NCBI RefSeq assembly: GCF_988243305.1
Contig: NZ_OZ547138.1
DNA from: a plasmid
Reading direction: 5' to 3' (one strand)
Length of the DNA stretch: 64,000 nucleotides
Positions 5,746 to 62,772 of the stretch are shown one piece after another. Below the pieces are notes generated by a model that saw only the letters and a list, made by a program, of their open reading frames with translations, was not told the origin of the DNA and did not search any database. Every line of letters starts with the position of its first letter. Positions within the stretch are counted from its first letter, which is position 1. The translations under genes and the position numbers were made by a program.

Positions 5746-6180
5746 ATGTACGGAACATGCGAAACGCTCTGCCGTGAGCTGGCAGCAAAGTATCCGGGAA
5801 ACACGCCGCTGATGCTGCTTATCTGGTCCCCGGAAGAGATTCAGGCCCTCGCTGACGGAATGGATATTTCTCTGTCCGATCATGAAATCAGAACCGTCCT
5901 GGCGCGCCTGGAGGACATCCCGGAAGACCAGCGGACTGAATCCGGTATTTCTTCCGGTGCGGCGATGGAGATTATCAATAACGTGAGAGAAAACCGCCAG
6001 GTGACCGTCCCTGCTGAACTGCTGGCGTCCCTGATTCAGACCGCCGAACAGGCACTGTGGAAACGTGAGTGGGCCGCCCGTGATAACGGCCTCGCCGTCC
6101 CGGAATGCGTCACCCGCCGACAGGCGGTGGTTAATCAGGCCCGCGCCCTGCTGAAAAACAACACACGCGAAAACGACTGA
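5746..6180 (+). CDS. Hypothetical leading-region protein; paralog of the ORF at 7881-8303
   Basis: 144 aa; GGAG RBS; shares motif R..VTVPA..L and acidic character with 7881-8303. Confidence 0.5.
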   Translation: MYGTCETLCRELAAKYPGNTPLMLLIWSPEEIQALADGMDISLSDHEIRTVLARLEDIPEDQRTESGISSGAAMEIINNVRENRQVTVPAELLASLIQTAEQALWKREWAARDNGLAVPECVTRRQAVVNQARALLKNNTREND

Positions 6181-6224
6181 TGTTATCGCCGCCTGCGGGC
6201 GGCGATTCAGGGAGACCATGAATC

Positions 6225-6995
6225 ATGAACGAAACGCTGAATGCACTGATTTATCGCCACGCCAGCAACCTGCTGCTGGCGCAGGGCTGGCCGGAAGAGA
6301 CGGATGTTGACCAGCGTAATCCGAAGTATCCGGGCTGGATCAGCATTTACGTGCGGCTGGATGTGCCCCGGCTGGCGACGTTACTTATCAACCGTCACGG
6401 CGGCGTACTGCCGCCGCTCCTGGCCTCCGCCATTCAGAAACTGACCGGAACCGGGGCGGAACTGGTACTGTCCGGCAGTCAGTGGCAGTCGCTGCCGGTA
6501 CTTCCGGCAGACGGAACACAGGTGTTTTTCCCGTATGCCGGAGAATGGCTGACCGAAGACGAAATCAGGGCAGTTCTTGATGCAGTGCGCAATGCAGTAC
6601 GAAGCATCTGTTACCAAGTGGCAGAAGATGCCCGGCGTATCCGGGCGGCGCTGACCACCACCGGTCAGACGTTGCTGACCCGCCAGACGCGCCGCTTTCG
6701 TCTGGTTGTGAAGGAAAGCGATTACCCCTGCTGGCTTGATGAAGATGACGAAAATCTGCCCGTGGTGCTCGATGCCATTCTGAACCGTGGCGCTCGTTTT
6801 TCGTCGGTGGAAATGTATCTGGTCAGTGAGTGTGTGGAGCATATCCTGTCCAGTGGGCTGGCCTGCGATGTGCTGCGTATACCTGATGAACCGTCCCGTC
6901 GCTGGTTTGACCGGGATATTCTGCGGGAGGTGGTCCTGGAAGCCCGGACTGAAATCCGCAGCATGGCGGATGCACTGGCGAAAATCCGGAAATGA
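6225..6995 (+). CDS. Hypothetical leading-region protein
   Basis: 256-aa ORF in the same orientation as neighbours. Confidence 0.45.
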
Positions 6996-8693: not shown

Positions 8694-9200
8694 ACTTCGG
8701 CTCCCGGCTGCCTGGCGGCATCCGGTCGTCAGGCCCGACTCCGACGGGCAGCTGCTGGCGCACCCGCCAGTCTCCGCCGAACCCGCTGGCGCGGTTTCGG
8801 GCTGCCGCTACGGTCCGATGCGTGAAAACCCGGCTTGCAGCGACCGTTCCGGTCGCGCCGCCCCTGTCGCGCCGTGACCTGCGCTCCCTGCACACCTGAC
8901 GGTGTGTGAGGAAACTGCGCCTGATGGCGCAGCAGTCCTCCCTCCTGCCGCCACTCCTGCGGCCTGTTTCCCGCTGTGGACTTTCCGGGGGGCAGACGTA
9001 ACCCCCTCCCGTTCCATCTGTCCAGGGTGAGATGCACCGGCCACAAAATTTTTAGCCATGAACCCGGCAAAAAATTTTGCGTCCGCCCCCGGACAGCTGC
9101 CCCGTGAGGCGGTAAACGGGCCCCCATCGGAAAGGTCCACTGCGGGGAGAAAACCCTGTGAAGTGGACGGCAGGAGGAGCTTTCGCTCCTCTGAAGGGGC
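8694..9200. repeat. Structured GC-rich repeat, family B copy 1 (ssi/Frpo-like) upstream of ssb
   Basis: About 500 bp homologous to 15041-15545 and, in part, 18071-18395. Confidence 0.6.
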
Positions 9201-9260
9201 ACATGAACGTCCCGTCGCCGGTATCCGGTTTATCTCACATCTTTCAGTCAGGAGGTTCTT

Positions 9261-9788
9261 ATGAGTGCACGTGGTATCAACAAGGTCATCCTCGTCGGGC
9301 GTCTGGGCAATGATCCGGAGGTCCGTTACATCCCCAACGGGGGCGCAGTGGCAAACCTGCAGGTGGCCACGTCAGAAAGCTGGCGCGACAAACAGACGGG
9401 GGAGATGCGGGAGCAGACGGAATGGCACCGCGTGGTGCTGTTCGGCAAGCTCGCGGAAGTGGCAGGTGAATATCTGCGCAAGGGCGCGCAGGTCTACATC
9501 GAGGGGCAACTCCGTACCCGTAGCTGGGAAGATAACGGTATCACCCGTTACGTCACTGAAATTCTTGTTAAGACCACGGGCACCATGCAGATGCTGGGGA
9601 GTGCACCACAGCAGAACGCTCAGGCGCAACCGAAGCCTCAGCAGTACGGCCAGCCACAGAGTGCTGACGCAACGAAAAAAGGGAGCGCGAAAACGAAAGG
9701 CCGTGGACGTAAGGCTGCGCAGCCGGAGCCTCAGCCGCAACCGCCGGAGGGTGAGGATTACTGGTTTTCAGACGATATCCCGTTCTGA
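9261..9788 (+). CDS. ssb: Plasmid single-stranded DNA-binding protein
   Basis: 175 aa, N-terminal OB-fold sequence [19 protein letters not shown], Gln/Pro-rich linker, acidic tail DDIPF. Confidence 0.95.
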
Positions 9789-9838
9789 ATGACTGACTGT
9801 GAAAACCGCCCCGTCCAGTGCGGGGCATCACCGGAGAT

Positions 9839-10078
9839 ATGAGGATGAGCGAATATTTCAGAATATTTCAGGGGCTGCCTGACGGCTCCTTTACCCGCGA
9901 ACAGGCTGAAGCCGTTGCCGCACAGTACCGGAATGTCTTTATCGAGGATGATCAGGGAACGCATTTTCGCCTGGTTGTCCGCAATAACAGTGGCCTGGTC
10001 TGGCGTACCTGGAATTTTGAGGACGGTGCCGGGTACTGGATGAACCATGTCATCCGGAATTTCGGCATTCTTAAGTAA
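9839..10078 (+). CDS. Small hypothetical protein (start uncertain: 9818 GTG, 9839 or 9845 ATG)
   Basis: ORF downstream of ssb in the same orientation. Confidence 0.35.
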
Positions 10079-10136
10079 GAGAGGTGCCGGACGCGCGAAC
10101 GTCCGGCAGGACATAAGCAATTATAAGGGGATGATT

Positions 10137-12095
10137 ATGCCTGTAACGAAGTGTGAACCAGAAACCACCCGCAAAGCAAGCCGTAAATCTGTAAAAACGC
10201 AGGAAACTGTCCTGTCTGCCCTGCTGGCGCAGACGGAGGAAGTGAGCGTGCCGCTGGCCTCGCTGATTAAATCACCGCTGAATGTGCGCACGGTGCCGTA
10301 TTCTGCGGAGTCCGTCAGCGAACTGGCGGAGTCCATTAAGGGCGTTGGCCTGTTGCAGAATCTGGTCGTGCATACCCTGCCTGGTGACCGTTACGGTGTC
10401 GCCGCAGGTGGTCGCCGACTGGCTGCACTCAACATGCTGGCAGAGCGTGGCATTATTCCGGCTGACTGGCCTGTACGCGTGAAGGTTATTCCGCAGGAGC
10501 TGGCGACTGCCGCATCAATGACTGAAAACGGTCATCGTCGGGATATGCACCCTGCCGAACAGATTGCCGGATTCCGTGCGATGGCGCAGGAAGGCAAAAC
10601 GCCTGCACAAATCGGTGATTTGCTGGGCTATTCGCCCCGCCACGTTCAGCGAATGCTGAAACTGGCAGACCTTGCGCCTGTCATCCTCGATGCGCTGGCA
10701 GAAGACCGCATCACCACAGAGCACTGTCAGGCGCTGGCGCTGGAGAACGACACCGCGCGTCAGGTGCAGGTGTTTGAAGCCGCCTGCCAGTCGGGATGGG
10801 GCGGTAAACCGGAAGTACAGACCATTCGTCGTCTGGTGACCGAAAGTGAAGTGGCGGTGGCGGGGAACAGTAAATTCCGCTTTGTGGGGGCTGATGCCTT
10901 CTCGCCAGATGAACTGCGCACTGATTTGTTCAGCGACGACGAGGGTGGCTATGTGGACTGTGTTGCGCTCGATGCCGCCCTGCTGGAAAAACTCCAGGCT
11001 GTTGCAGAGTTCCTTCGGGAAGCCGAAGGCTGGGGATGGTGCGCCGGACGCATGGAGCCTGTCGGTGAGTGCCGTGAGGATGCCGGAACATACCGCTGTC
11101 TGCCGGAGCCGGAAGCGGTGCTGACGGAGGCGGAAGAAGAACGCCTGAACGAACTGATGACGCGTTACGACGCGCTGGAAAACCAGTGTGAGGAATCCGA
11201 CCTGCTGGAAGCAGAAATGAAGCTGATTGACTGCATGGCGAAGGTCAGGGCGTGGACGCCGGAGATGCGTGCCGGAAGTGGCGTGGTGGTGTCCTGGCGT
11301 TATGGAAACGTATGTGTCCAGCGTGGTGTGCAGTTGCGCAGTGAAGATGACGCGACTGATGACGCTGACCGCACGGAACAGGTGCAGGAGAAAGCGTCAG
11401 TGGAGGAAATCAGTCTGCCGTTGCTGACGAAAATGTCTTCCGAACGCACGCTGGCAGTCCAGGCAGCACTGATGCAGCAACCGGACAAATCCCTGACACT
11501 GCTGGCATGGACGCTCTGCCTGAATGTGTTTGACAGCGGAGCGTACAGTAAACCAGCACAAATCAGCCTGGAATGTAAACATTATTCGCTGACCAGCGAT
11601 GCGCCGTCAGGGAAGGAAGGTGCCGCATTCCTGGCGCTGATGGCAGAAAAAGCCCGTCTTGCGGCCCTGTTACCGGAGGGATGGTCACGGGACATGACGA
11701 CGTTCCTGTCACTCAGTCAGGAGGTGCTGTTATCCCTGCTCAGTTTCTGCACCGCATGCAGCCTTAACGGTGTCCAGACCCGCGAGTGTGGTCGCACGTC
11801 ACGCAGTCCGCTTGACTCACTGGAGAGCGCCATCGGTTTTCACATGCGCGACTGGTGGCAGCCGACGAAAGCAAACTTCTTCGGACACCTGAAAAAGCCG
11901 CAGATTATCGCAGCCCTGAATGATGCCGGACTGTCCGGTGCCGCACGGGACGCAGAGAAGATGAAGAAAGGCGATGCCGCTGAACATGCAGAGTTCCATA
12001 TGAAAGACAACCGCTGGGTGCCTGGCTGGATGTGTTCACCACGTCCACAGACGGATGCCACTGAACGCGCCGATAACCTGGCTGATGCCGCCTGA
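10137..12095 (+). CDS. ParB-like nuclease domain protein of the leading region
   Basis: N-terminal ParB/Srx-like region (LQNLVVHTLPGDRYGVAAGGRRLAAL); about 650 aa; start ATG 10137 preferred (AAGGGG RBS). Confidence 0.7.
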   Translation: MPVTKCEPETTRKASRKSVKTQETVLSALLAQTEEVSVPLASLIKSPLNVRTVPYSAESVSELAESIKGVGLLQNLVVHTLPGDRYGVAAGGRRLAALNMLAERGIIPADWPVRVKVIPQELATAASMTENGHRRDMHPAEQIAGFRAMAQEGKTPAQIGDLLGYSPRHVQRMLKLADLAPVILDALAEDRITTEHCQALALENDTARQVQVFEAACQSGWGGKPEVQTIRRLVTESEVAVAGNSKFRFVGADAFSPDELRTDLFSDDEGGYVDCVALDAALLEKLQAVAEFLREAEGWGWCAGRMEPVGECREDAGTYRCLPEPEAVLTEAEEERLNELMTRYDALENQCEESDLLEAEMKLIDCMAKVRAWTPEMRAGSGVVVSWRYGNVCVQRGVQLRSEDDATDDADRTEQVQEKASVEEISLPLLTKMSSERTLAVQAALMQQPDKSLTLLAWTLCLNVFDSGAYSKPAQISLECKHYSLTSDAPSGKEGAAFLALMAEKARLAALLPEGWSRDMTTFLSLSQEVLLSLLSFCTACSLNGVQTRECGRTSRSPLDSLESAIGFHMRDWWQPTKANFFGHLKKPQIIAALNDAGLSGAARDAEKMKKGDAAEHAEFHMKDNRWVPGWMCSPRPQTDATERADNLADAA

Positions 12096-34001: not shown

Positions 34002-34475
34002 TTAGCCTTTTTTCCAAATCTGGTATGTATAATTTATATTAGACATAAAAAACTGTTCAAAAACCAAATTGAAATTCTCAGGCATTATAGGGAATTTGAT
34101 ATCACCTTCGACTTCAACGTGAACAGTAGACAAATGAATTATATCTGCTTTTTCAATAAGGCTATTATAGATTTGACCCCCGCCAGAGACATATACATGA
34201 TCTGTAACTTTTGATAGCTCTTTCAAAGCATTTTCTATTGAAGGAAAAACTAGGACGTTTTCATTTGAGCTTGAAATTCCGTTCTTTGACACTACTGCAT
34301 ATTTGCGATTTGGAAGAACACCCATAGAGTCAAATGTTTTTCTTCCGACAAGGAGCCATTGATTATATGTGAGCGCTTTAAAGAGTAGTTGCTCACCTTT
34401 TACTGACCACGGGATATCAGGACCACTACCGATTACGCCATTTTCTGACACTGCAGAAATCAATGATATTTTCAA
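34002..34475 (-). CDS. dfrA17: Trimethoprim-resistant dihydrofolate reductase, dfrA17-type
   Basis: 157 aa from [23 protein letters not shown]; first cassette next to attI1. Confidence 0.85.
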
Positions 34476-34632
34476 TTTAACTCCCTTAATGGCTAACTTT
34501 GTTTTAGGGCGACTGCCCTGCTGCGTAACATCGTTGCTGCTCCATAACATCAAACATCGACCCACGGCGTAACGCGCTTGCTGCTTGGATGCCCGAGGCA
34601 TAGACTGTACAAAAAAACAGTCATAACAAGCC
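34476..34632 (-). other. attI1: attI1 integration site region of the class 1 integron
   Basis: Region between the intI1 start and the first cassette. Confidence 0.6.
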
Positions 34633-56829: not shown

Positions 56830-56925
56830 ATGATTAACCTGTTAATCATCGTTCTCAGGGCGGTTGTTGCTGTGGCTAACGCAGTGATAGCAATCCTGGA
56901 ACTGATCCGGGAACTGGTTGACTGA
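56830..56925 (+). CDS. Candidate DinQ/TisB-like type I toxin, 31-aa hydrophobic peptide (copy 1)
   Basis: MINLLIIVLRAVVAVANAVIAILELIRELVD; RBS GGAG embedded in the palindrome CTCCATTGATGGAG; strong terminator downstream. Confidence 0.55.
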   Translation: MINLLIIVLRAVVAVANAVIAILELIRELVD

Positions 56926-57163: not shown

Positions 57164-57262
57164 CGCAAAAAAACCGACTGGTGAGGCCGGTTTTTTTGCG
57201 ATTCCGGATCGAAGTTGGTAGCCCTGACCGGAAGATAACTGCCTATAACTGACTATGAAATA
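57164..57262 (-). ncRNA. Candidate antisense antitoxin small RNA 2 (predicted, type I TA unit 2)
   Basis: Minus-strand promoter-like TTGCAG-17-TATTAT near 57285-57315, segment 57221-57252 matching the toxin-2 5' UTR motif (57410-57441), hairpin plus T-run 57166-57197. Confidence 0.35.
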
Positions 57263-57513: not shown

Positions 57514-57609
57514 ATGATTAACCTGTTAATCATCGTTCTCAGGGCGGTTGTTGCTGTGGCTAACGCAGTGATAGCAATCCTGGAACTGATCCGGGAACTG
57601 GTTGACTGA
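57514..57609 (+). CDS. Candidate DinQ/TisB-like type I toxin, 31-aa peptide (copy 2, identical coding sequence)
   Basis: Coding sequence identical to 56830-56925, same RBS palindrome and terminator. Confidence 0.55.
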   Translation: MINLLIIVLRAVVAVANAVIAILELIRELVD

Positions 57610-57997: not shown

Positions 57998-58465
57998 TTA
58001 TTTCTTATTCTGTTTTCTCCAGGTCCATGGTGGTACCGGATTTTTATCTGCCCATAATCCCCGCTTCAGGGCGCGGGCATCACGCTGGAGCGGCGGGAGA
58101 GTATAGTCATTATTGTAGTCCGGGTACACCCAGGCAGCGCCGTTACGGACCTGCCAGCGATTTGCTTCTGTGCCGTCAGCGGTATAGACCCGGCCGAGAA
58201 TACGGCCATACCTGTCTGTCTGCGCGTATTGCACGGTTACGGGCTTTCCGGCCACCAGGTCCTTCAGCTGAGTGGCTGACCAGCGTCCAAAGGGCTGTTT
58301 CTTTTCCGGTGCATCAATATTAGCCAGACGGACCCTGACAGGCTTTTTGTCCTGTAATATTTCCAGCGTATCACCATCAAGAACGCGGATGACGTGCCCC
58401 TGAATCTGTGCGGCACAGAGAGAGGCGGAAAAAATAATGGTGAGTGAAAATATATATTTTATCAT
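57998..58465 (-). CDS. nuc: Secreted thermonuclease-like endonuclease (SNase family, plasmid nuc-type)
   Basis: 155 aa with signal peptide and SNase-like motifs (VIRVLDGDTLEI, RLANIDAPE, DRYGRILGRV). Confidence 0.8.
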   Translation of the reverse strand: MIKYIFSLTIIFSASLCAAQIQGHVIRVLDGDTLEILQDKKPVRVRLANIDAPEKKQPFGRWSATQLKDLVAGKPVTVQYAQTDRYGRILGRVYTADGTEANRWQVRNGAAWVYPDYNNDYTLPPLQRDARALKRGLWADKNPVPPWTWRKQNKK

Positions 58466-58567: not shown

Positions 58568-59248
58568 ATGAATTCCAGTACGCTGATATCCGTGATGATA
58601 CGGCAACAGATATCCGGTGACGGTATGCAGGAACATATTGATTATCAGATTGAGAAATATCAGTTCAGGGCCAGGAATGAGTCACCGCGACTGATGCGCC
58701 AGTGGGAAGATGTCATGCGTGAATGCCGTGATACCGGAGCAGGAGCCAGGGAGCGGCTGCGGATTGCCTTACTTAATGTTGATTATGTGACCAGTTTTGA
58801 ACTGCCGTTTCGTCTGCTGTTAACCCGGACACCGCAGATGATTGACAGCGTGCGGCGGGAATGGCAGCTCAGCCAGAAAAAAGTTGTATTCAATGAGCGG
58901 CAGCGGGGATGTGTATACAGTCTGCAGAATGACTTATCCGGCGTGCCGGATAGCTTCAGTTACAGTCTTGCGACGCGAATACGGCGGGCGGACAGCTATG
59001 GCATGACGACGCGTTGTTTCACTGATATAGCCGGGCAGGTTAAAGCCCCGACAGCACGGCTGAAACTGGCGCTGGAAAGCGGGTTAATTGTCACCGCGCT
59101 GGATGGTCTGTTCTGGCTTGGTATTCAACGTATTGCCGCAGATGTGCAGCGGCTGCGTCAGTCCGGAATGACAATCATCACCCGGGATGTTGAGGTCTCA
59201 GACTCGCTGACCGGAACCACACGGGTTGTTTCCGGGTACAGCCTTTGA
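58568..59248 (+). CDS. Hypothetical protein (start uncertain, possibly ATG 58626)
   Basis: 226-aa ORF; no recognisable motif. Confidence 0.4.
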   Translation: MNSSTLISVMIRQQISGDGMQEHIDYQIEKYQFRARNESPRLMRQWEDVMRECRDTGAGARERLRIALLNVDYVTSFELPFRLLLTRTPQMIDSVRREWQLSQKKVVFNERQRGCVYSLQNDLSGVPDSFSYSLATRIRRADSYGMTTRCFTDIAGQVKAPTARLKLALESGLIVTALDGLFWLGIQRIAADVQRLRQSGMTIITRDVEVSDSLTGTTRVVSGYSL

Positions 59249-59449
59249 TTTATGCAACAAAGTATCGCAGCGTCGAATATGAGCTATGGCCAGATTTTTG
59301 TTAATCGTGGTTGTTGCAACATGTAAGGCGAATGACCACACTATTCTGGCACGCTCGTAATCATGCTGAAATTCTGCTTCCTGTCCTGCCGTGATGAGTT
59401 CCGACCAGGACATACGGCGAAGTGTATGTCTGTCAGTAATATCCGTCAT
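59198..59449 (-). CDS. Small hypothetical protein (fourth gene of a coupled four-gene cluster)
   Basis: 83 aa; start overlaps the upstream gene stop by 4 nt. Confidence 0.35.
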   Translation of the reverse strand: MTDITDRHTLRRMSWSELITAGQEAEFQHDYERARIVWSFALHVATTTINKNLAIAHIRRCDTLLHKSKAVPGNNPCGSGQRV

Positions 59450-59661
59450 GAGCTCTCAGCCTCCTCCTTCGTATTTCCGTCAGAAACACAAACGCCCCGC
59501 AGAGAAAATTCGCCAACATTCTCCTTTTTAATGGCGCGCAATGCATCGCGGCAGGCCCGTTCGGTATGAAAGGCCTGGCTGTGCACCGCCAGTGTGGGCT
59601 GACGGGCATCACCGGAAGAGACATTAAAGGGCGATGAAAGCCAGAAAATCAGTAGCCACAT
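59446..59661 (-). CDS. Small hypothetical protein with N-terminal hydrophobic segment (third gene)
   Basis: 71 aa; MWLLIFWLSSPF signal-like N-terminus. Confidence 0.35.
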   Translation of the reverse strand: MWLLIFWLSSPFNVSSGDARQPTLAVHSQAFHTERACRDALRAIKKENVGEFSLRGVCVSDGNTKEEAESS

Positions 59662-59664
59662 GCG

Positions 59665-60048
59665 TCACACCTCGTCCTTTTTATGCGGGTATCTGGACAG
59701 AATATTGAGCGCCTGTAATGGCGCTTCATGCATTTCACGGATACAACGGGCATCGGTGATATTTTCCCGGTAATGTGTGGTTTCCAGCATCATATGATGC
59801 ATATGGAGCATCCGGGCCAGGGCTGCGCGGAGTTCTTCAATATGTTGTTCATGGGAATGCTGGCGGGGCTGTATCCGGCAGAGAGGGATAACCTCCACAT
59901 CATCCGGGTGCGCGCGAAGCCACGCGTCAGTGACTGCAATGTCGTCAGTGTAAAACCATGTGCCGGATGTCCCGTTGGCCAGAAAACGCATTTTCCAGGT
60001 TTCTGGGGTGGCGGTTGTGTTGTTATCTTTCATGGTGCCACCACTCAT
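59665..60048 (-). CDS. Hypothetical protein (second gene)
   Basis: 127 aa; start overlaps the upstream gene stop. Confidence 0.4.
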   Translation of the reverse strand: MSGGTMKDNNTTATPETWKMRFLANGTSGTWFYTDDIAVTDAWLRAHPDDVEVIPLCRIQPRQHSHEQHIEELRAALARMLHMHHMMLETTHYRENITDARCIREMHEAPLQALNILSRYPHKKDEV

Positions 60049-60236
60049 TCAACAGGCTTAATGCTGTCCAGGCGCAGTCTGCTCAGACTGTCGTGGCTGC
60101 CACAGCGGCGTCCAGTGCTTTTGCTGTAGCACTCCTGCCCCCTGATACACCATGCCGTTGGCGTTTCGTAGAGGCTGACACGTCGGGTTTTATCTTTAAT
60201 GATGAGAAGCCCGGTGTGAGTTTTTGTCTTTTTCAT
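60045..60236 (-). CDS. Small hypothetical protein (first gene)
   Basis: 63 aa. Confidence 0.3.
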   Translation of the reverse strand: MKKTKTHTGLLIIKDKTRRVSLYETPTAWCIRGQECYSKSTGRRCGSHDSLSRLRLDSIKPVE

Positions 60237-60323
60237 CGGTGGGGTACAAACGCAGAAATTTTGTTGTCATCAGTTTTTGCCTGCAGAGGCCTGAAAAGAC
60301 AGCGTTTTCAGGCCCTGTTCAGG

Positions 60324-60566
60324 TTAGTGAATATTCTTGCCTGGCTTTTCGGCAATATCAATCCCCTGAAGTTGCATGGATATCCCATGCCCATTGAGCA
60401 TCTGGCTGTCCATGGAATGGATACCGCATGTCATCATCAGGTTGTAACAAAGCGTACTCAGCATGGTGAGCGCCTCTTCTGAGGATTTACAATGTGTATT
60501 CATAAGGGCCAGAAACTGCTCAACAACATCCGGGTTAATGCTGGTACTGTGTATTTCATCCTTCAT
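60324..60566 (-). CDS. Small hypothetical protein (start taken at MKDEIHST)
   Basis: 80 aa from an internal ATG with a weak RBS; the longer ORF extends to 60644. Confidence 0.35.
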   Translation of the reverse strand: MKDEIHSTSINPDVVEQFLALMNTHCKSSEEALTMLSTLCYNLMMTCGIHSMDSQMLNGHGISMQLQGIDIAEKPGKNIH

Positions 60567-60747
60567 GATGTGTCCTTGTTTTTTATTATTTTGCATTTCA
60601 GAAAATAACACGATGCCTGCAGCCCGGAAAACAGATGTGTGCACACGTAGTCACTTTCCGGCTTTATTTCTGTCCCTGACACAAAATACGTGGTGGCATG
60701 AAAAGGATTGTGGCGGACAGGAAAACGATTAGAATAGCGGCGGGCGC

Positions 60748-61041
60748 TTGAGGCTGTATGCCGAAAGCGTTTTGTGGACGGCATGTAGCAGAAAGCCCCA
60801 GGCGATTTTTTTATCAATCAACCCAGGGCCCACTGTAATGCCTAGACAACATTATAGTAGCCCGATGACGGCCGAAAGGCAATGGAGGGGCTGCGATGCC
60901 ACAACGAACGTTTTTAATGATGTTAATCGTCGTCTGTGTGACGATACTGTGTTTTGTCTGGATGGTGAGGGATTCGCTTTGCGGATTTCGTATCGAGCAG
61001 GGAAATACGGTGTTTGTGGCAACGTTAGCCTACGAAGTTAA
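60748..61041 (+). CDS. pndC: Candidate PndC (mok-like frame overlapping pndA; true start uncertain)
   Basis: ORF overlapping pndA in another frame, as in hok/mok-type loci. Confidence 0.35.
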   Translation: MRLYAESVLWTACSRKPQAIFLSINPGPTVMPRQHYSSPMTAERQWRGCDATTNVFNDVNRRLCDDTVFCLDGEGFALRISYRAGKYGVCGNVSLRS

Positions 61042-61048
61042 ACGTTAA
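60896..61048 (+). CDS. pndA: Hok-family type I toxin PndA
   Basis: 50 aa MPQRTFLMMLIVVCVTILCFVWMVRDSLCGFRIEQGNTVFVATLAYEVKR, GGAGG RBS. Confidence 0.85.
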   Translation: MPQRTFLMMLIVVCVTILCFVWMVRDSLCGFRIEQGNTVFVATLAYEVKR

Positions 61049-61185: not shown

Positions 61186-62772
61186 TCAATTATGACAGTC
61201 GCTCTCATTTGGTTGTCTCTGGTTAGATGTATTATTAGATATTTTCGGGGTAATTCGATAAAAGTTATCCACTTCAGCACCAGACTGAATGATATATGCA
61301 ATAAGATCTAAACGATGAATCTCGTATCGTGTACGTAACTCCATCATTTCACGCCATGCTAAAATCCTTGATGTTTTCAGTTCAGCCTCTATAAGTTTCC
61401 ATGTGTTTGTTGAGATGGCATGTTCTTCCAGCTGACGTAACGAGAACCTATCACTAATGACCAACCATCCCCATCCTCGAGTATGTGCCCATTTGCGACC
61501 TGCATTACTTTTTATTCTCGTGAGACTCAAGGTCATTCGGTCTGTTGGCTTCACTTCCATAAGTAGGCACCGACCATCAACTGTCGCAATGAGTAAATCT
61601 GGATAGTATTTTTTTGATTTGTTTTTAAAACAATATGGAATAGAAAATGGTTGTTCTTGATAGAAAAGAACCTGATCGCAACATTCTAATAGATTCATTA
61701 TTTTAAACTCAAGCCCTGATTCGTACTGGACTGTACGACCTAATTTTTGAGAGTAAAAGAATCCAGATATGTCAGTATCATTAACCGCTCTCTGTGAACA
61801 TAGCTGTTCTACGGGGGGAGGAGGTGCGATATATTTTGGCCAATGTGTATTGTCTAGCCATTTACTGAATATGAACTCAACTCTTTCTTTCTTGATTCGG
61901 GCTCTTTCCTGAGCGTGAGCGTGTGCTAATTCTGCTCTTCGTTCACGTAACTTCTGCTTTTGTAATTGTGATATTAATGAGAGCGAATTTTTTATTTCAT
62001 CTCGTCTTGCTTTAGGAATGCCTGCGGCAAAAATGATGAATTTGGCGGCTAACTCAGAGGATGTAACGAAATCCCGATGAACAATACGATAAATCCATAC
62101 TGCTATATCATATGGTGAATTACCTATTGAGTTAATAAGGGCTTTAAGGCAAGCTCCAGGTGTCCCTTCATAGCGAGATTTAGCAGCTAGTAAGCCAAGG
62201 GCTCGTTCCTGAAGTTGTCTTACCCTTTCACGGGAAATTCCTAATTTGACGGCAATATCTGCCAGAGAATGAGGTGAATCATCTGTGCCGAGTCGCATTA
62301 GAAGAATATATTGATGTCGTTTATTAGATAAACTTTCGATAGCAGAATGAATTAGCATAATGACATCATGTTCATCGGCTATATAATCTTTAAAATCTGT
62401 ATTGGGTTGGCAGAGGGGGAGTGGGGTATTTTGTTTAAAACTATTCTTTTGTATTTCAACTTTATCATGAGCAATTGTTTTTGCAGTGCTCAATGATATT
62501 AAATTATTGATGATACTATTGTGTTCTTGGCGAGGAATCTTGTTGAAGTAATTGCTGAGATCATTCACCGTGTTTATATCGTTGAACTCAAGAAACTCAG
62601 AAGGAAGCAGGCGTTTGATTGCTCCACGTATTCCCCCGGACGATCGTTGATGTGTTTGAGTAAGTTTTTTTAGCGAGACGCCCTCCGCTATGGATACGAG
62701 AAGACGCTGTAACTCTTCAGTATTCCATGGAGTACCATGTCGTGCTGGAAAATTGCTGCGGGATTCAGACAT
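61186..62772 (-). CDS. Hypothetical protein combining a sigma-70 region-4-like HTH with a C-terminal PD-(D/E)xK (TnsA-like) nuclease-fold domain
   Basis: 528 aa; middle segment LADIAVKLGISRERVRQLQERALGLL; C-terminal YESGLEFK...YPDLLIATVDGRCLLMEVKP resembles the E...D...EVK catalytic arrangement of TnsA-like endonucleases. Confidence 0.5.
   Translation of the reverse strand: MSESRSNFPARHGTPWNTEELQRLLVSIAEGVSLKKLTQTHQRSSGGIRGAIKRLLPSEFLEFNDINTVNDLSNYFNKIPRQEHNSIINNLISLSTAKTIAHDKVEIQKNSFKQNTPLPLCQPNTDFKDYIADEHDVIMLIHSAIESLSNKRHQYILLMRLGTDDSPHSLADIAVKLGISRERVRQLQERALGLLAAKSRYEGTPGACLKALINSIGNSPYDIAVWIYRIVHRDFVTSSELAAKFIIFAAGIPKARRDEIKNSLSLISQLQKQKLRERRAELAHAHAQERARIKKERVEFIFSKWLDNTHWPKYIAPPPPVEQLCSQRAVNDTDISGFFYSQKLGRTVQYESGLEFKIMNLLECCDQVLFYQEQPFSIPYCFKNKSKKYYPDLLIATVDGRCLLMEVKPTDRMTLSLTRIKSNAGRKWAHTRGWGWLVISDRFSLRQLEEHAISTNTWKLIEAELKTSRILAWREMMELRTRYEIHRLDLIAYIIQSGAEVDNFYRITPKISNNTSNQRQPNESDCHN

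Follow-up and report, generated by a model that had tools for sequence, protein, structure and literature searches.

A conserved module of four small genes in the trbA-excA gap of IncI-type Escherichia coli plasmids

The window analysed here, a stretch of 64,000 nucleotides from a plasmid (NCBI RefSeq assembly GCF_988243305.1, contig NZ_OZ547138.1), is by its sequence an IncI-type E. coli plasmid region, and its variable gap between trbA and excA carries five small minus-strand open reading frames (ORFs) that we call g1 to g5 (Table 1). Over 1,601 compared bases the 1.6-kb region in question is 100% identical to the IncI-complex plasmid pHUSEC41-1. Codon comparison with distant relatives shows that g1-g5 are kept by purifying selection, and we hold it very likely that they are real genes and that g1-g4 form a conserved module. 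The explanation that fits best overall, which we put forward tentatively and with confidence somewhat short of even, is that g1-g4 would be a co-inherited accessory operon acting on host regulation through protein-protein contacts. From their sequences we infer that the four products of this operon are small, soluble and phage-related.

Coding evidence, gene order and distribution

The four minus-strand ORFs of 63, 127, 71 and 83 aa that the first-pass annotation listed are present in both the ORF list and the raw sequence. Small ORFs are, however, frequent by chance (52 ORFs of at least 30 aa in the ORF list overlap the 5-kb stretch), and since chance ORFs of such size are common it is the comparative evidence that is decisive. 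As homologues we used distant blastn matches from about 230 plasmids (IncK2/Z, IncIγ/K1 and relatives), which share about 72% DNA identity with the window across g3-g2-g1; likeness to the IncK type breaks off exactly at the start codon of g1. Each of the four proteins can be recognised in the IncK/IncIγ plasmids, and their order is unchanged. The ratio of non-synonymous to synonymous substitutions (dN/dS) was calculated by the Nei-Gojobori method against four IncK/IncIγ loci, and it is low for each of the five ORFs (Table 1) at synonymous sites that are near or at saturation (dS about 1 for g5, above 1.3 for g1-g3 and saturated for g4). Therefore, all five ORFs, including the unannotated g4, are to be taken as real protein-coding genes. 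An opposite-strand gene model antisense to g2 (59728-60129, plus strand, 133 aa) was rejected: it is also open in the homologues, and because of its dN/dS of 0.80 (44% amino-acid identity) we consider it a shadow ORF. It may be noted that the public calls are uneven. In four RefSeq plasmid records g3, g2 (as 122 aa) and g5 are always called, g1 is called in two and g4 never, and g1 is present in all five related loci, often uncalled. Rows of a plasmid tblastn likewise gave no annotated feature beneath the g4 match.

The junctions are also as first described, namely an ATGA at g1/g2 (60045-60048), a 3-nt gap at g2/g3 (TGA-cgc-ATG) and a second ATGA at g3/g4 (59446-59449), but the 4-nt overlap of g1 and g2 probably rests on a wrong start codon for g2. 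The g2 proteins of the IncK/Iγ plasmids start with MNDGRQ, which aligns with MKDNNT from the ATG at 60033; in the IncK/Iγ loci the ATG overlapping the stop codon of g1 lies in another frame than g2; and the PGAP annotation also takes 60033 as the start. For these reasons g2 is most likely a 122-aa protein with an 11-nt spacer after g1. The junctions in the window are thus -4 nt (+11 nt with the conserved g2 start), +3 nt and -4 nt, so that the genes nearly abut on one strand. In an IncK2/Z plasmid (locus L004) the corresponding spacers are 10, 9 and 33 nt, and across loci they never exceed 33 nt; the close packing is conserved and the exact overlaps are not. Of the co-translated operon that had been proposed, the genuine same-strand genes, the very short spacers and the kept order stand, whereas the 4-nt overlaps are not shared by the homologues, and translational coupling may occur but is no conserved constraint. 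Since the order g1-g2-g3-g4 is kept despite saturated synonymous sites, a co-transcribed operon is the natural reading, in which a single transcript would run from 60236 to 59198.

The signals around the genes were examined as well. Shine-Dalgarno-like sequences stand before g3 (GAGGTG, 7 nt upstream, good), g4 (GGAGGAGG/GAGAG) and g5 (AAGGA, 6 nt upstream); the one before g2 is weak (GGTGG) and none is visible upstream of g1 in the window. The predicted stem-loop between g5 and g1 is kept in locus L015 (with one G-C changed to G-U) and in a chromosomal copy (L021), and it is possibly a partial terminator or an RNA end. The promoter-like sequence upstream of g1 comes from a scan that gave four sites against 2.6±1.5 expected in shuffles, which is weak evidence. 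No terminator was found after g4. A natural deletion variant was also encountered (L008, 5001-5321), in which g2 runs in frame from its N-terminal half into residues 28-83 of g4 (its C-terminal two-thirds) and g3 is gone, g1 and g5 being intact.

Matches to the module were found in 599 plasmid records, which are nearly all from Escherichia/Shigella and mostly conjugative, with mating-pair formation type MPF_I in the loci inspected. The same four genes in the same order occur on IncI1-type, IncK2/Z and IncIγ/K1 plasmids and on chromosomes, and most E. coli copies are chromosomal: 1,348 of 5,426 complete E. coli genomes have a match, 978 have at least 80% of g1-g4, and 980 chromosomal places were counted. 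The chromosomal copies are 95-97% identical and are flanked by insertion sequences (IS). In the three chromosomal loci inspected iha is adjacent, and in the one viewed with wide flanks the block lies between sat and iha. The homology corresponds to about 59000-60700 of the window, which includes g5 and a remnant of a helix-turn-helix (HTH) gene and excludes pnd. By this match the g5-g4 block is also part of the IS-flanked sat-iha virulence island of extraintestinal/urinary-tract E. coli. As a separate observation, IncIγ/K1-type plasmids carry a serine-protease autotransporter (S6 peptidase) gene directly upstream of g1 on the same strand (Table 1), and in the chromosomal copy L021 another autotransporter gene, sat (1-2718), lies about 6 kb off across IS elements.

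Could the ORFs be functionless hitch-hiking remnants, or a part of the pnd stability locus? The genes have no known phenotype, the slot is mosaic and in chromosomes rich in IS, and the g2-g4 fusion of L008 exists, all of which would agree with such a reading. Yet dN/dS stays at 0.07-0.20 at near-saturated synonymous sites, each of the five ORFs is unbroken in the plasmid lineages and in the three inspected chromosomal copies (one chromosomal copy has an in-frame 9-nt deletion in g2), and every one of the exact protein sequences has been recorded from some 1,000 contigs or more. Also, pnd is a self-contained hok/sok-type locus (60742-61048), and g1-g4 are found without it. We therefore hold both forms of this reading to be highly improbable, and the region is not the remnant of a disrupted larger gene that the first-pass annotation had named as a possible outcome.

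Table 1. Features of the g1-g5 region, of its surroundings in the window and of related loci. Positions are those of the window unless a locus number is given.
Feature	Position	Strand	Size	dN/dS	Remarks
g1	60045-60236	minus	63 aa	0.10-0.12	
g2	59665-60033	minus	122 aa	0.13-0.20	alternative upstream ATG at 60048 gives 59665-60048, 127 aa
g2 C-terminal module	59689-59847	minus	residues 63-115		about 50 residues; consensus L..AL.RM..MH.LMM.K.NHGASFYDAECIREMNEAP.QA
g3	59446-59661	minus	71 aa	0.07	
g4	59198-59449	minus	83 aa	about 0.14	last in module
ANR-like core of g4	59252-59398	minus	residues 18-66		
g5	60324-60566	minus	80 aa	0.19	counted from ATG at 60566
Stem-loop (predicted)	60280-60323	minus			directly after g5 stop; core GGCCUGAAAA-7 nt-UUUUCAGGCC; no U-tract
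Promoter-like TTGATA-17-AAGAAT	60333-60361	minus			inside g5 3′ end, upstream of g1; consensus scan only
sok match	60742-60898				Rfam RF01794, 125.6 bits
pndA (Hok/Gef)	60896-61048	plus			coding sequence
528-aa protein	61186-62772	minus	528 aa		
ECs1377-family winged-HTH gene	58625-59248	plus			
Staphylococcal-nuclease homologue	57998-58465	minus			secreted type
dqlB, first copy	56830-56925	plus			
dqlB, second copy	57514-57609	plus			
AgrB antisense RNA match	57165-57252	minus			Rfam, 47.7 bits
AAC_AAD_leader / attI-site match	34462-34543	minus			Rfam, 68.8 bits
S6 peptidase autotransporter	L003 7073-11164				
S6 peptidase autotransporter	L007 401-4491				
S6 peptidase autotransporter	L009 404-4495				

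Likeness of g4 to the ANR family

The statement of the first-pass annotation that none of the ORFs resembles a protein that can be named proved wrong for g4, which has a sub-threshold match to NF033650 (ANR_neg_reg), the NCBIfam model of the ANR (AraC negative regulator) family, and falls into the PHROG families of Aar; g1 and g3 fall into phage families of unknown function. The NF033650 scores are 20.6 bits for g4 of the window (E 3e-4), 25.3 bits for the chromosomal form (1e-5) and 28.3 bits for the IncK/Iγ form (1e-6). Both g4 and Aar (from pAA of strain 042, an enteroaggregative E. coli, EAEC) match phrog_2227 and phrog_30383 in consistent register. The protein is conserved, g4 of the window being 49-54% identical to the 103-107 aa versions of IncK/Iγ plasmids over 72-73 aligned codons. 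On chromosomes the annotated g4 is a hypothetical protein of 90 aa whose tail differs. The gene product is small and basic (9.4 kDa, isoelectric point, pI, 9.3).

The residues that define the ANR family are A10, E14, A22, W26, A29, W43 and R47, corresponding to A14, E18, A26, W30, A33, W45 and R49 of Aar, and mutation of A14, E18, A26 or W45 abolishes Aar activity (Santiago et al. 2016, PMC4983702). In a gapless alignment, in which g4 residue n corresponds to Aar residue n-8, E18, A26, W30, A33 and C53 of Aar are kept. The position of A14 is Gly in g4 of the window and Ala in the other copies, and that of R49 is His in the window and Lys in the IncK copies. Thus four to five of the seven signature residues, plus the Cys, are kept in g4. 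ANR proteins bind AraC-family proteins (AraC/XylS activators) and H-NS (PMC4983702, PMC5570504). Further marks of the family are an all-helical architecture of three helices and binding to the central part of the activators and/or H-NS, by which their regulons are repressed.

Several results weigh against placing g4 in this family. In every copy g4 scores below the curated NF033650 cut-off of 32 bits, the Aar control reaching 65.7 bits, and every g4 copy has Leu at the place of W45 of Aar. A profile built from g4 homologues fails to single out Aar (E 1.2 among 5,191 decoys), and hhalign gives a probability of 7%. The IncK homologue of 12.7 kDa exceeds the family description of less than 10 kDa. 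Also, the annotation of the matching plasmid pHUSEC41-1 shows no gene of the AraC family and none for H-NS or Hha, and any target of g4 would therefore be a chromosomal host protein. Host chromosomes encode AraC-family proteins, and the co-occurrence of an ANR gene with such proteins is trivially satisfiable at the level of the genome. A sequence search found no solved ANR structure. Since the g4 profile is not significant against Aar, we call g4 ANR-like and not a member of the ANR family. From these comparisons g4 is probably a distant, sub-threshold relative of the ANR (Aar-like) family; that it also has an ANR-like anti-activator function is a good deal less likely, possible but short of probable.

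Like Aar of EAEC 042 pAA, Cnr and Rnr, g4 is a small basic protein encoded on mobile DNA of pathogenic E. coli. It differs from Aar in an extra N-terminal stretch of about 17 residues and in a variable C-terminal tail (which gives the IncK copies their 103-107 aa). It also differs in setting, as g4 ends a four-gene operon whereas an ANR gene is solitary and is activated by its cognate AraC regulator. Two other assignments were rejected. The tail 'PCGSGQRV' could be seen as a truncated SEC-C motif, but the tail is variable and is frameshifted in other copies; membership of the PerC family was dropped, there being no match to Pfam PF06069 even at E<=10. In public records g4 is named 'neurotensin receptor R8' and its IncK form (L004, 4628-4951) 'flagellar biosynthesis protein FlgM'. 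These names are propagated across the listed records, and no family search supports either. 'R8' has the look of an ORF label, perhaps from an early paper on a pathogenicity island.

Relatives of g1, g2 and g3 and the proposed function

The g1 protein is basic (pI 9.95) and matches phrog_1226, phrog_7520 and phrog_5148 (1e-17 to 3e-14), all of unknown function. Its homologues, 43-53% identical, lie in the early regions of lambdoid and other temperate phages (of Escherichia, Yersinia, Klebsiella and Cronobacter, and Shiga toxin (Stx) phages). A zinc site formed by its three Cys was rejected, as these are not conserved in the homologue of a Klebsiella phage. The g3 protein matches phrog_3766 (2.5e-11), likewise of unknown function, and Klebsiella phage 2b LV-2017 has an unannotated homologue with 41% identity, flanked by the genes EaD and Eaa. 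Word-indexed homologue searches with g1 and g3 gave no more than close relatives. No match to Pfam, NCBIfam, PADLOC or PDB was found for g1, g2, g3 or g5; the PADLOC protein models gave no match for any of g1-g5 at E<=0.1, and solved structures gave no sequence match for any of them.

The full-length family of g2 is small and confined to Enterobacteriaceae, mostly E. coli, and tblastn of the whole protein against phages gave no match. An exhaustive profile search returned 68 proteins at E<=1e-3, about 45 of which share only the C-terminal module of about 50 residues. Its carriers are otherwise unrelated proteins of 60-220 aa with the module at their C-terminus, and the gene of one of them stands in a Mu-like prophage's early region, with Gam on one side and GemA/Mor on the other. 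In the ten carriers scanned the module matched no Pfam family, and the sole PHROG hit overlapping it is weak (phrog_34012, E 6e-4, in one protein). An AlphaFold2 model of g2 from 53 sequences (pLDDT 70.6) predicts an N-terminal β-β-α-β unit and a C-terminal helical hairpin, for which fold searches returned generic helical matches only and nothing specific. We take the C-terminal part of g2, on these sequence and model data, as a widespread and so far uncatalogued helical module of mobile-element proteins. A full-length g2 homologue (about 55% identical) stands alone at 6001-6375 of locus L013, so that g2 also travels without g1, g3 and g4. On the same contig there are export genes of type III secretion, three genes of the PerC family, one for ProQ/FinO, and ssb (interval 8782-10468).

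The runs of very short, tightly packed ORFs in the early operons of temperate phages (λ exo-xis/ea, P22 ead/eaa) are similar to the module, and g1 and g3 have true homologues in such operons, while the C-terminal module of g2 recurs in a Mu-like early protein. The four genes together are, however, in no phage examined, and g2 as a whole has no phage match. The comparison with λ exo-xis is an analogy, no homology to a named λ exo-xis protein having been demonstrated.

These relatives raise the possibility that the module is a phage-derived cassette of the 'moron' type, which would help the element to be protected or to become established (for example through superinfection exclusion, anti-defence or host interference) and would have no transcriptional role, the ANR likeness of g4 being due to a shared helical-hairpin scaffold. 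The place of the g1 and g3 relatives in temperate-phage early regions beside Ead/Eaa and nin genes is consistent with it, as is the g2 module in a Mu-like early operon. Also, g4 is sub-threshold for ANR and is without the W45 equivalent, and genes of conflict and stability abound nearby, namely two dqlB genes, that of a thermonuclease, pnd and that of a TnsA-like/sigma-r4 protein. But the PADLOC search was without a match, and the module lies outside the leading region where anti-defence genes cluster, being on the nikB/trb side of oriT opposite to ardA/psiB/ssb. In IncI1 transfer the nikB/trb side enters the recipient late. Moreover, a chromosomal island, which neither conjugates nor lyses, has retained the block. 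On balance we consider a cassette of this kind the main rival, possible but not likely.

An alternative location of the module at the envelope was weighed on account of g3, whose N-terminus had been seen as signal-peptide-like. If g3 were exported with a cleavable signal peptide and disulfide-bonded, the module could modulate conjugation, entry exclusion or pilus function. The protein begins with a hydrophobic stretch (MWLLIFWL) followed by VSS/GD and has two conserved Cys (C37 and C58); the Klebsiella phage homologue keeps the hydrophobic N-terminus and both Cys, and transfer genes flank the module, which lies between trbA and excA. Against the usual marks of a Sec signal peptide (a basic n-region, a hydrophobic core of at least about 10 residues and an AXA-type cleavage site), g3 by eye has a hydrophobic core of only 7 residues (WLLIFWL), no basic n-region and a candidate VSS/G site. 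Also, a chromosomal island that has no tra genes retains this block, g1, g2 and g4 look cytoplasmic (hydrophilic), and the non-tra genes in this slot of pESBL, where the gene content differs, were scored as dispensable for transfer. An envelope role is accordingly improbable in our estimate, more so than the phage-derived cassette.

In the accessory operon that we prefer, one transcript would carry g1-g4, starting from a promoter close to the 3′ end of g5 or upstream of it, and the gene products would act by protein-protein binding and not by catalysis. Action by protein contacts is suggested because no catalytic or DNA-binding family was detected and because this is the known mode of ANR proteins on AraC/XylS activators and H-NS. 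The mode we think most likely for g4 is that of ANR proteins: it would be a small helical protein that binds a host AraC/XylS-type activator or H-NS, and such binding would retune host gene expression after the element arrives. The other three would be small factors of host interaction, independent of one another, such as the early operons of temperate phages contain. What counts against a common role of the four is that g1, g2 and g3 each also occur alone elsewhere (g3, for instance, in a chromosomal integrative and conjugative element, ICE), as does g4-related DNA; in view of the lone occurrences of g1, g2 and g3, the four need not act together.

We found no paper that deals with these genes, and neither the pESBL nor the pCT study covers them. 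A parallel comes from the transposon-insertion sequencing (TnSeq) study of pESBL, in which the trbA-excA slot has other genes, including a Hha/YmoA-like one (PMC4288162). The product of this gene is a small regulator-modulating protein in the same variable slot; it has no sequence relationship to the module, and the parallel is positional and speculative. In the strongest form of the preferred reading, g4 would be a functional, unrecognised branch of ANR with three partners, the g2 module would be a new interaction domain, and plasmids as well as the sat-iha island could retune programmes controlled by AraC/XylS activators or H-NS, such as acid resistance, fimbriae and virulence. We consider this strong form unlikely. 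If true, it would concern several hundred I-complex resistance and virulence plasmids together with about a quarter of the complete E. coli genomes by match, or about a sixth by presence of most of the module. Should g4 act like Aar, host transcription factors would have a modulator encoded in a block that is very common on chromosomes of extraintestinal E. coli and on I-complex resistance plasmids, and this would bear on plasmid-host cross-talk and virulence regulation.

In practical terms, conserved g4 is missing from the plasmid annotations inspected, two database names are unsupported, and an uncatalogued domain of about 50 residues is now defined. The genes are already in databases as hypothetical proteins, and as a set of well-delimited conserved hypothetical genes they will not surprise a plasmid specialist; what is new is the evidence that g4 and g1 are coding, the recognition of g4 as ANR-like, the correction of where g2 starts, the setting apart of g5, the link to the island and the g2 C-terminal module.

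g5, pnd and other genes of the slot

From trbA to excA the order is two dqlB type I toxin genes with the AgrB antisense RNA, a 58-aa ORF, the thermonuclease gene, the ECs1377-family HTH gene, g4, g3, g2, g1, g5, pnd, the gene of a 528-aa TnsA-N/sigma-70-region-4 protein and excA. The fifth small gene upstream of pndA, which had been counted with the cluster, is a real gene but not part of it: g5 is a separate gene, divergent from pnd and outside the g1-g4 unit. In the IncK2/Z locus L004 it adjoins the Hok/Gef gene 4 kb away from g1-g4 and is followed by its own terminator hairpin (14 bp plus a U-run, z = -5.8). In L015 divergence from the window is mosaic, with 54 differences in g5 against 8 in total across g1-g4. 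In the chromosomal island, g5 stays with g1-g4 and pnd is absent. The protein is acidic (pI 5.3), has no family match, and is encoded on 479 plasmids, of MPF_I type in all where this is shown.

Both parts of a pnd locus, a Hok/Gef toxin ORF and the sok RNA structure, are present next to g5, as in the hok/sok-type pnd of IncI/B/K plasmids. Though g5 is the immediate neighbour of pnd and co-varies with it, g1-g5 all lie outside the RNA/toxin unit, and g1-g4 occur without pnd in the IncIγ/K1 loci as well as in chromosomes. In L004 g5-like sequences flank pnd, with a full copy upstream (9711-9953) and a partial copy of 50 residues (72% identical) downstream (10491-10673).

Beyond pnd, the 528-aa protein shows an odd pairing of a sigma-70 region-4-like HTH (about residues 130-200) with a TnsA-endonuclease-like domain (about 330-440). 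It adjoins pnd, and in plasmid pCT the same holds for pCT_066, an 'unusual putative sigma factor', of which by position and description only it would be the counterpart. In the pCT study, knock-outs of the neighbouring 'sigma factor' (pCT_066) and of pndACB gave no phenotype that was found. On the trbA side, dqlB (a DinQ-like type I toxin gene) is present twice in the stretch from trbA to the thermonuclease gene, and together with pnd the two copies make three type I toxin loci within 5 kb. The thermonuclease, a secreted-type staphylococcal-nuclease homologue, is divergent from the HTH gene and has a weak match to a PADLOC candidate model (SNc+LTD, 1.3e-11). The 3′ end of the HTH gene overlaps the convergent g4 by 51 nt, and a remnant of it accompanies g4 into the chromosomal island. 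Elsewhere in the window, the AAC_AAD_leader / attI-site match (Table 1) indicates a resistance cassette region of integron type.

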